Assembly (NCBI GenBank): GCA_943356495.1
Contig: CALRFF010000003.1
Span: 551 to 64,550, forward strand
Direction: 5' to 3'
DNA length: 64,000 bases
Source: Candidatus Nomurabacteria bacterium
GTDB taxonomy: Bacteria > Patescibacteriota > Minisyncoccia > Phycocordibacterales > SBAW01
A program made the translations under genes and the position numbers. Numbering within the stretch: position 1 is the stretch's first letter; each line of letters opens with the position of its first letter. Below, one piece after another: positions 53,159 to 60,019 of this stretch. The notes beneath the pieces were generated by a model. It did not search any database. It was not told the DNA's origin and saw nothing but the letters and a program-made list of their open reading frames with translations.

Positions 53159-56100
53159 ATGCGTGAACAAAAGTACTTCTCCCGCTTCAAGGCTCCGCGC
53201 GTCGAAACGCCAAACCTTGTCGCCGCACAGGTCGACTCCTATAAATGGATTATAGAGAAGGGGGTTCGGGAGACGTTCAAGGAGTTTACGCCTATTAGGG
53301 ATTACTCCGGCAAGAAGTTTGACCTTGAGTTTGTAAAAGTAGAGATAGGGGAGCCCAAGTACGACGAGCACTACGCCAAGGCGCAGAAGCTCACTTTGGA
53401 CGTGCCTGTCCGCGCCGTGGTCCGGCTAAAGAACAAAGTTACCGCTTCGGAGAAAGAGCAGGAGATTTTCCTTGCCGACCTGCCGATTATGACCACTCAC
53501 GGCACCTTTGTTATCAACGGTGTCGAGCGCGTTATCGTGCCCCAACTCGCCCGCTCCTACGGCGTCTTTTTTACCGCCGAGGAAGTTAAGGGCAAGCGCC
53601 ACTTCGGCGCAAAAATTATCCCCGCGCGCGGCGCGTGGATAGAGATAGAGGCCGAAAGCTCCGGCGACCTCTCGGTGCGCATCGACCGCAAGCGCAAGTT
53701 CCCTGCTATTTCGCTCCTGCGCGTACTCGGCGCCCATTTTGACAGCGACATTAAGTCGCTCTTCGGCAAAACAGCCATCGGTAAAGCGTGGGTTGACCTT
53801 GCGATAGAAAAAGACCCCGCTAAAACCTTGGACGAAGCCTATGTCGAGATACACAAGCGCCTCCGCGACGGCGACTTGGCTACCGCCGCCAACGCTAGGG
53901 AGTATATCAACTCTATTTTCGGCCCCGAGCGCTACGACCTGTCCCGCGTCGGCCGTTACCGCTTTAACCAGCGCTTCCAAAAATCGCTCGACGAGGTAGA
54001 GTTGCTCCGCAAAACCCTTTCTCTCGACGATGTCGTGATGGTGCTCCAGCATGTGCTCGAGCTTGAAAACGATCCGAACGCTATCGAGGACAACATCGAC
54101 CACCTCGGCTCCCGCCGCGTGCGCTACGTGGGCGAAATGCTGCAGCAACGCCTGCGTGTCGGCTTGACCCACATGAAGCGCAACATACAGGACCGCATGT
54201 CGACTATCGACGCGGACGCGACCCTGCCGCAACAGTTTGTTAACCCGCGCCCGCTGCAGGCCCGTATTAAAGAATTTTTTACCACCAACCAGCTCTCGCA
54301 GTTTATGCAGCAGGAAAACGCGCTTACCGAGCTCGAGCACCTGCGCACGCTCTCGGCGCTCGGTCCCGGCGGTCTTACGCGCGAGCGCGCGGGCTTTGAG
54401 GTCCGCGACGTGCACCCGTCCCACTACGGCCGCCTGTGCCCTATACACACTCCCGAAGGCCCCAACATCGGCCTTATTTTGCGTCTCGCAACTTTTGCGC
54501 GGCTCAACGAGTTCGGCATGATCGAGACGCCGTACGCCAAGGTGGTTAAAGGCAAAGTCACGCAGGAAATTGTCTATCTTAACGCCGCCGAGGAGGAGCA
54601 GCAGCGTGTTGCCCACGGCGCCACCGCACTTGCAGACGACGGCACTATAGAGGAAGAGGTCGTCGAGGCCCGCCTTAACGGATACCCGACCCGCGTGCCC
54701 CGCAACGAGGTTAACTACATCGACGTCGCCCCCGAGCAGCCGTTTTCTATCGCTACGTCGATGATCCCGTTCCTCGAGCACGACGACGCTAACCGCGCGC
54801 TCATGGGTTCGAACATGCAAAAGCAGGCAACGCCCTGCATTATCCCCGAGGCGCCGCTCGTCGGTACCGGCATGGAGGCCCGTGCCGCGCGCGACACCGG
54901 CCGCCTTATTGTGGCTAAAGAGGCCGGCACGGTTACGGCAGTCGACGGCCGCCATGTCAAAGTTAAAAATGAAAAGGGTAAAGAAGTAGAGTATCCGTTG
55001 GTTAACTTTGTGCGCACCAACGGCTTTACCGCCTTGCACCAGCGCCCGGTTATCGAGCTCGGCGCTAAAGTTAAAAAAGGCGAGCTCTTGGCCGACACTT
55101 CCACCACCGACCAAGGCCAGCTCGCGCTCGGCCAAAACGCGCTTGTCGCGTTTATGTGCTGGAGCGGCGCCAATTACGAAGACGCTATCATCATTTCCGA
55201 GCGCTTGGTTAAAGACAGCAAGTTTTCCTCTATCCATATCGAGGAGTTTGTCTGCAACGTGCGCGACACCAAACTGGGACCTGAAGAGACCACCCACGAC
55301 ATTCCCAATGTGTCCGAAACCAAGCTCCGCAACCTCGACGAAGACGGCATTGTCCGCACCGGCTCTGAGGTGCGCCCCGGCGACATTTTGGTCGGCAAAA
55401 TAACTCCCAAGGGCGAAACCCAGCTGACGCCCGAAGAGCGTTTGCTTCGCAGTATCTTCGGCGACAAGGCCCGCGATGTTAAAGACTCTTCCTTGCGCAT
55501 GGAAAACGGCAAGCGCGGCCGCATCATCGGCGTTAAAGTATTTTCCCGCGAGGCGGGCCACCAGCTCGAGAGCGGGATCATCAAGCGCATACATATAGAG
55601 ATAGCGCAGCTGCGCACCGTCTCCGTTGGCGACAAGCTCGCCGGCCGTCACGGTAACAAGGGCGTTATTTCCCGCATCTTGCCGGAGGAGGACATGCCGT
55701 ACATGGAGGACGGCCGTCCGGTAGACGTTATCTTGACGCCGCTCGGCGTGCCGAGCCGTATGAACTTGGGGCAAATCCTCGAGCTCCACTTGGGGCTTGC
55801 GGCCAACACACTTAACTATCAGGCTATCTGCCCGCCGTTTGCAGGCGCCACCGAAGAGGAAATCCGCGCCGAGCTTAAAAAGGCCGGCCACAACGAAAAC
55901 GGCAAGATGCCGCTCTACGACGGCCGCACGGGCGAGAAGTTCGAGCAGGACATCGCGGTCGGTTACATGTACATCTTGAAGCTCCACCACATGGTCGAGG
56001 ACAAGATCCACATGCGCTCCATCGGGCCGTACTCGCTCATTACCCAGCAGCCGCTCGGCGGCAAGGCGCAGGGCGGCGGTCAGCGCTTCGGCGAAATGGA

Positions 56101-60019: not shown

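Follow-up and report, generated by a model that had tools for sequence, protein, structure and literature searches.

A fused gene for the RNA polymerase beta and beta' subunits in Candidatus Adlerbacteria, and its apparently repeated origin in Paceibacteria

Introduction

Is the long reading frame that joins rpoB to rpoC in the 64,000-nucleotide stretch of DNA analyzed here (the window) a genuine gene fusion, and if so, how did it arise, is it shared with relatives, and how does it compare with the beta-beta' fusions already on record? Natural fusions of the two genes are usually stated to occur in Helicobacteraceae and Wolbachia (PMC7483510). A beta-beta' fusion in Candidatus Adlerbacteria has already been mentioned, together with that of Wolinella succinogenes, in Protein Sci 2024;33:e5194 (PMC11515920); it appears there only as a technical remark, with no distribution, linker analysis or history given. 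Nor was a paper on the distribution or recurrence of the rpoB-rpoC fusion across the CPR found in the literature searched.

The fused gene and its two modules

The rpoBC gene, encoding a fused RNA polymerase beta-beta' protein, occupies positions 53159-60019 of the plus strand as a single ORF of 2286 codons plus a stop codon; it starts with ATG, and its translation contains no internal stop. The amino-terminal RpoB (beta) module (aa 1-1046; 53159-56296, plus strand) is compact, with ~1050 aa, and ends in ...FNVLLHTLRGLALDVEL, while the RpoC (beta') module (aa 1066-2286 and the stop codon; 56354-60019, plus strand) begins with DFDALRIRPASPE. When measured against the NCBIfam rpoB models NF001616 and TIGR02013, the first module is a full-length RpoB that scores above the curated cutoff; for NF001616, aa 4-1047 align with profile positions 3-1095 of 1096, at 1438.8 bits versus a cutoff of 896. 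Its Pfam domains Rpb2_1, 2, 3, 45, 6 and 7 are all present and in order (aa 19-1048). The second module matches the NCBIfam rpoC model TIGR02386 over its full length (aa 1070-2256 against profile positions 2-1144 of 1147; 1452.1 bits versus a cutoff of 963.5), contains all of the Pfam domains Rpb1_1 to Rpb1_5 (aa 1066-2160), and possesses in its translation an intact amino-terminal Zn-finger with the binding cysteines (CYCGK...CEKCG) and the intact catalytic NADFDGD motif; the activity motif GGQRFGEMEVWAL can also be read in the rpoBC translation. An identical protein has been called as one gene in the NCBI MAG GCA_943354845.1 and in the ENA assembly ERZ27280197. The single frame, the lack of a stop codon within it and the two full-length profile matches bear out the original prediction that rpoB and rpoC lie in one ORF of 2286 aa, and from this gene structure a single-polypeptide product is predicted.

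The junction and the linker

The boundaries of the linker were set by aligning the junction with solved RNA polymerase chains retrieved by a PDB sequence search. In the solved beta chains the alignment stops at ...LDVEL (aa 1046), and these chains end 2-12 residues further on, that of 9n9p_C already after two residues; in the solved beta' chains the alignment begins at their residues 3-7, at ...DFDAL (aa 1066), and these chains start 2-6 residues ahead of DFDA. The linker accordingly consists of the 19 residues between the two modules (aa 1047-1065, MKNSDPVRGSRKTPGAEAS; 56297-56353, plus strand). The short linker that had been predicted at about nt 56290-56345 is found close to that place, with its exact position corrected to 56297-56353. 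Among the best 60 matches to the junction, no PDB chain spans both modules. With 19 residues, the linker is no longer than the two free tails of the solved chains combined, and it is shorter than the free beta tail and the beta' leader of unfused relatives, which together comprise ~25-45 residues. An AlphaFold2 prediction of a 450-aa junction fragment alone, made with a 26-sequence alignment, yielded a low-confidence model (mean pLDDT 59.6, pTM 0.36).

The amino-terminal half of the linker is variable, and a core, [RK]KTPGAE (56324-56347, plus strand), is conserved. The anchor-to-anchor segment that contains the junction measures exactly 372 nt in 8 of 8 Adlerbacteria genomes, across which synonymous sites are near saturation (pS 0.65-0.73). 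In the same eight genomes, pN/pS amounts to 0.44 in the linker versus 0.09 in both flanks, and the changes in the KTPGAE core are almost confined to third codon positions. Such substitution patterns point to a linker that is under purifying selection and evolves as coding sequence, and the conservation of the KTPGAE core suggests that it may do more than tether the two modules passively.

Authenticity of the fusion

Indel errors do occur in metagenome-assembled genomes, and a sequencing or assembly artefact at the junction might in principle have turned two separate genes into a single ORF; a related fused singleton with unfused relatives, P0089, could itself be such an error. A full-length protein search covering 5.8 billion proteins speaks strongly against this explanation for the window. 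Its matches P0001-P0112, with identities from 93% to 52% and derived from NCBI, JGI, ENA and Logan assemblies, are all fused; the complete members measure about 2240-2322 aa, both anchor motifs are present in one frame in every member, and the linkers vary in sequence and length between conserved flanks. In the full-length hit list, no separate beta or beta' protein above ~65% identity was found where such a protein would rank. The nearest species representatives belong to Candidatus Adlerbacteria (e.g., GW2011_GWA1_54_10), show 85-96% identity in the junction segment and are all fused, and Candidatus Adlerbacteria relatives at 75-96% identity all possess the same in-frame junction.

The in-frame junction thus recurs in over 110 independent protein clusters drawn from four data sources, its length is equal in eight Adlerbacteria genomes despite their near-saturated synonymous divergence, the linker shows purifying selection, and no remnant of a stop or start is left at the junction. 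An artefact can for practical purposes be dismissed. The two outcomes that the original prediction had named as fatal to itself, an indel error at the junction or relatives that all carry separate genes, are both contradicted by these data: more than 110 clusters are fused with a linker that evolves like coding sequence, and the aligned Adlerbacteria junctions are all in frame. Its question whether relatives carry the same fusion can be answered with yes for all Candidatus Adlerbacteria at 75-96% identity. One stop-free frame and a junction kept in related genomes, the marks of a natural beta-beta' fusion, are hence both present.

Origin and effect of the fusion

We suggest that the ancestor of the fused lineage carried rpoB and rpoC next to each other with a short spacer between them, as unfused sister lineages still do. 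Judging from the comparison with unfused relatives, a deletion would then have taken out the beta carboxy-terminal tail, the stop codon and the spacer, and the 19-residue linker would now stand in for the free beta carboxy-terminal and beta' amino-terminal tails, a view that draws on solved structures and engineered fusions. Because these two chain ends adjoin on the enzyme surface, the linker probably acts as a flexible tether; it would fix a 1:1 stoichiometry with equimolar synthesis, and would make the association of beta with beta' intramolecular and thereby ease assembly, with catalysis unchanged. The covalent tethering of chain ends that are already adjacent is most likely the main effect. 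As summarized in PMC3993855, citing Severinov et al. 1997 J Biol Chem 272:24137, E. coli grows with engineered fusions of the beta carboxy-terminus to the beta' amino-terminus, and its transcription properties are unaltered; Mycobacterium bovis RNA polymerase fused through a 10-aa linker is active (PMC3993855).

A fused ORF might nevertheless give rise to two subunits, either through internal initiation at Met1047 or through cleavage within the conserved linker core. Met1047 (ATG at 56297, plus strand), the first codon of the linker, coincides with the boundary between beta and beta' and is widespread among members of the clade, most of which read ELM, and the KTPGAE core is conserved beyond the needs of a passive tether. 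This alternative is nonetheless quite improbable in our view, because Met1047 is not invariant (L, Q or T replaces it in several members of the clade) and because no Shine-Dalgarno-like sequence precedes it; furthermore, free beta would not arise from internal initiation, and engineered fusions that remain uncleaved are functional (PMC3993855). We hold with considerable confidence that the rpoB-rpoC fusion is genuine and evolutionarily fixed in Candidatus Adlerbacteria, that it would have originated by deletion, and that it probably operates as a tether that leaves catalysis unchanged.

Taxonomic placement and gene neighborhood

In a neighbor-joining tree of concatenated RpoB and RpoC sequences (63 taxa, 2202 columns, 100 bootstraps, corrected p-distances), the window sequence falls into an Adlerbacteria RpoBC clade with a bootstrap value of 100; this clade includes L001, which is identical to the window, and L006-L009, all of its members are fused, and it is characterized by an anchor-to-anchor distance of 115 and the linker core RKTPGAE. 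Judged by these sequences, the organism is a member of Candidatus Adlerbacteria (Paceibacteria/Parcubacteria; CPR/Patescibacteria). It should be noted that many MAGs grouping with Paceibacteria/Adlerbacteria on RpoB and RpoC (L004, L014-L017 and others) are titled 'uncultured Candidatus Saccharibacteria bacterium'; these titles come from a bulk TPA submission, and the labels look unreliable.

Upstream of rpoBC lie rpsP (51223-51609, plus strand) and a gene for a KH-domain protein (51610-52005, plus strand), both of which pass their curated cutoffs, and trmD (52007-52657) is positioned between the KH-domain gene and rpoBC; dnaG (60082-61686) follows downstream, and rpoD (61708-62943) comes after dnaG. 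The order rpsP-KH-trmD, rpoB rpoC, dnaG-rpoD is common to the fused Adlerbacteria, the fused locus L019 and many unfused relatives, among them genomes labelled Taylor-, Zambryskii- and Nomurabacteria. Since fused and unfused relatives have the same gene order, the arrangement is older than the fusion. A fused clade of Liptonbacteria-like sequences is found without the rpsP-trmD/dnaG-rpoD context.

Two observations concern genes farther upstream. A minus-strand ORF for RNase R (926 aa; 919 aa in public calls) runs antisense to rpsP and the KH-domain gene in the region 49180-52005; its RNase R domains do not start before residue 302 (about nt 51057), and the synteny of rpsP and the KH-domain gene with trmD is kept in more than 25 relatives. 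Given the late start of the domains, the curated cutoffs passed by rpsP and the KH-domain gene, and the conserved synteny with trmD, the public annotation seems to make RNase R too long and to miss rpsP and the KH-domain gene. A homologue of SMC (46804-49020) is short, with 738 aa (720 aa as called publicly) versus the ~1180 positions of the TIGR02168 model. One head domain is matched (aa 20-332 against profile positions 1-309), and ABC-type ATPase matches extend over the carboxy-terminal ~100 aa; because both fit within 738 aa, the coiled-coil arms of this protein appear to be much shortened.

Expression signals and the 5' leader

An intrinsic-terminator-like hairpin with a 10-bp stem and a T-run (52916-52939, plus strand) closes the upstream trmD unit. 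It is followed by a candidate sigma-70-type promoter (TTGACA, 16 nt, TGcTATACT; 52952-52979, plus strand) that has 11 of 12 matches and an extended -10 region and is conserved among the Adlerbacteria relatives. The distal end of the gene is marked by a hairpin composed of CCCGAGGT, a GAAA loop and ACCTCGGG, followed by T5 (60037-60066, plus strand), a likely terminator 18 nt past the rpoBC stop codon. With terminator-like hairpins flanking the gene and a near-consensus promoter of its own, rpoBC appears, from these consensus matches, to be monocistronic.

The 5' leader (52984-53158, plus strand), whose length of roughly 175 nt is estimated from the position of the -10 region, is conserved among Adlerbacteria and contains a conserved CGAAACCAA box just downstream of the promoter, a hairpin at 53021-53043 (plus strand), and a terminator-like hairpin at 53087-53103 (plus strand) with a T-run that extends to 53120 (GCTCTTTTCGTGTTTTT). 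Among five genomes, compensatory changes affect 4 of the 16 predicted base pairs of the leader. No Rfam family matching the leader was found, and no Shine-Dalgarno-like sequence is present before the rpoBC start codon (...ttcttcaccccacactcatATG, 53140-53161). The rpoBC leader might possibly serve as an attenuator or as an autoregulatory element.

History of the fusion within Paceibacteria

In 24 of the 82 loci compared the two genes are fused, and in the other 58 a stop codon, a short spacer and an ATG lie between them; these numbers do not lend themselves to an estimate of the fused fraction of genomes. rpoB and rpoC are in the same frame in all 58 unfused loci, and a biological cause such as fission by nonsense mutation was considered; this idea was rejected because the independently retrieved unfused loci L083 (425, 4371) and L085 (4501, 8652) are out of frame. 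The same-frame pattern of the unfused loci, which lie among L010-L082, instead reflects a bias in how the locus finder ranks its results.

The RpoB plus RpoC tree described above was rooted on a non-Paceibacteria-like clade, the truncated Bacilli locus L081 being unusable as an outgroup. A Liptonbacteria-like clade (L057-L072) is wholly fused and is sister to all others. The sister group of the Adlerbacteria clade (bootstrap 97) is unfused with the exception of the singleton P0089, and L019 and P0088, which are both fused, form a pair (bootstrap 100) among unfused lineages. According to this topology, rpoB and rpoC appear to have fused on at least three separate occasions in Paceibacteria, with unfused lineages between the fused ones. 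Parsimony favors such recurrent gain, which takes three to four events, over a single gain that would have to be followed by five to eight fissions. Linker length and linker sequence also differ from one fused group to the next, as do, for the Liptonbacteria-like clade, the flanking genes.

Conversely, the fusion could be ancestral to Paceibacteria and have been split repeatedly, so that the state found in Adlerbacteria would be retained rather than acquired independently within the CPR. The large basal Liptonbacteria-like clade (L057-L072) is indeed entirely fused, and a PGAE-like motif is common to the linkers of Adlerbacteria and of P0088/L019. We nevertheless consider an ancestral fusion unlikely: the tree would require at least five to eight fissions versus three to four fusions, the linkers of the fused groups are not alike in length or sequence, the basal fused clade is without the rpsP-trmD/dnaG-rpoD context, and the spacers of unfused loci exhibit clear RpoB tails, several stop codons and ATG starts. 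Separate gains hence remain our preferred reading.

Two further details of the comparison deserve mention. The linker core RKTPGAE of Adlerbacteria (56324-56347 in the window) resembles YKNPGAE in P0088 and RTAPGNK in L019, lineages that stand apart on the tree; this resemblance could be due to chance, convergence or shared ancestry. P0089 (2307 aa) stands alone as a fused sequence among its closest relatives (L037, L044, L045, L047 and L048), which are all unfused, and its linker has the look of a spacer that is being translated; either the fusion took place very recently or the sequence was wrongly assembled.

Significance

In Candidatus Adlerbacteria the rpoB-rpoC fusion is fixed and has been reported before, and it belongs to a kind that is well understood. 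It carries little mechanistic weight, as cells are known to tolerate beta-beta' tethering with roughly neutral effect and the Adlerbacteria fusion itself has been published. What is new, in a modest way, is only that the fusion appears to have recurred within Paceibacteria. On the practical side, annotation pipelines name such fused proteins only beta' or only beta, and they must be split in marker-gene workflows designed for rpoB and rpoC as two genes. With its apparently repeated origin in Paceibacteria and its presence in other small-genome lineages, the fusion could serve as a clade marker, and rpoBC illustrates on a modest scale how gene fusions converge in streamlined genomes.

Comparison with known beta-beta' fusions

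To survey fused proteins more broadly, a junction-spanning phmmer search was conducted against 1.84 billion 50%-identity cluster representatives. Among the matches listed, ~20 fused representatives of at least 1850 aa have matches across the junction. The view taken in the original prediction that natural fusions are known from only a few lineages is therefore too narrow, with about 20 deep fused clusters present in public data, and so is the usual statement that names Helicobacteraceae and Wolbachia (PMC7483510). One of them is the 2648-aa protein of Mycoplasma wenyonii (WP_014849752.1), annotated by its source as a 'multifunctional fusion protein', which is likewise a single-chain beta-beta' protein; it and the other fusions of the census derive from unrelated lineages and differ in size. 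On balance, we lean slightly towards the view that the fusion is recurrent and convergent, having arisen at least three times in Paceibacteria (Adlerbacteria, L019/P0088 and the Liptonbacteria-like clade) and occurring in ~20 deep bacterial lineages, many of them with reduced genomes, and that the KTPGAE core may have a role beyond tethering.

The RpoBC protein of Helicobacter and Wolinella (Zakharova et al. 1999 J Bacteriol 181:3857, as cited in PMC7483510) is also naturally fused, with the beta carboxy-terminus joined in frame to the beta' amino-terminus in one large polypeptide; it belongs to another phylum, is of independent origin, and is ~600 aa longer through lineage-specific insertions. 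The RpoBC protein of Wolbachia (P0116; 2837 aa) is also a natural beta-beta' fusion from a reduced genome, yet it is alphaproteobacterial and shares 45% identity with the window protein over half of the query. With a length about 550-600 aa below that of both types, the window protein lies outside either family: it attains 2070.5 bits with the Helicobacter-type model NF007172 (2890 aa) versus a cutoff of 5372, and 1963.2 bits with the Wolbachia-type model NF011417 versus a cutoff of 4632. Scores this far under both cutoffs, and nearest lineages on the tree that are unfused save P0089, uphold the proposal that this fusion is independent of those in Helicobacter and Wolbachia.

The engineered tethers of E. 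coli and M. bovis, which likewise join beta to beta' through a short linker, provide a functional model for the natural fusion; they are artificial and connect complete termini, whereas in Adlerbacteria the linker replaces the natural tails. The closest counterpart is the published beta-beta' fusion of Candidatus Adlerbacteria (PMC11515920), which comes from the same candidate phylum and has the same architecture as the window protein.
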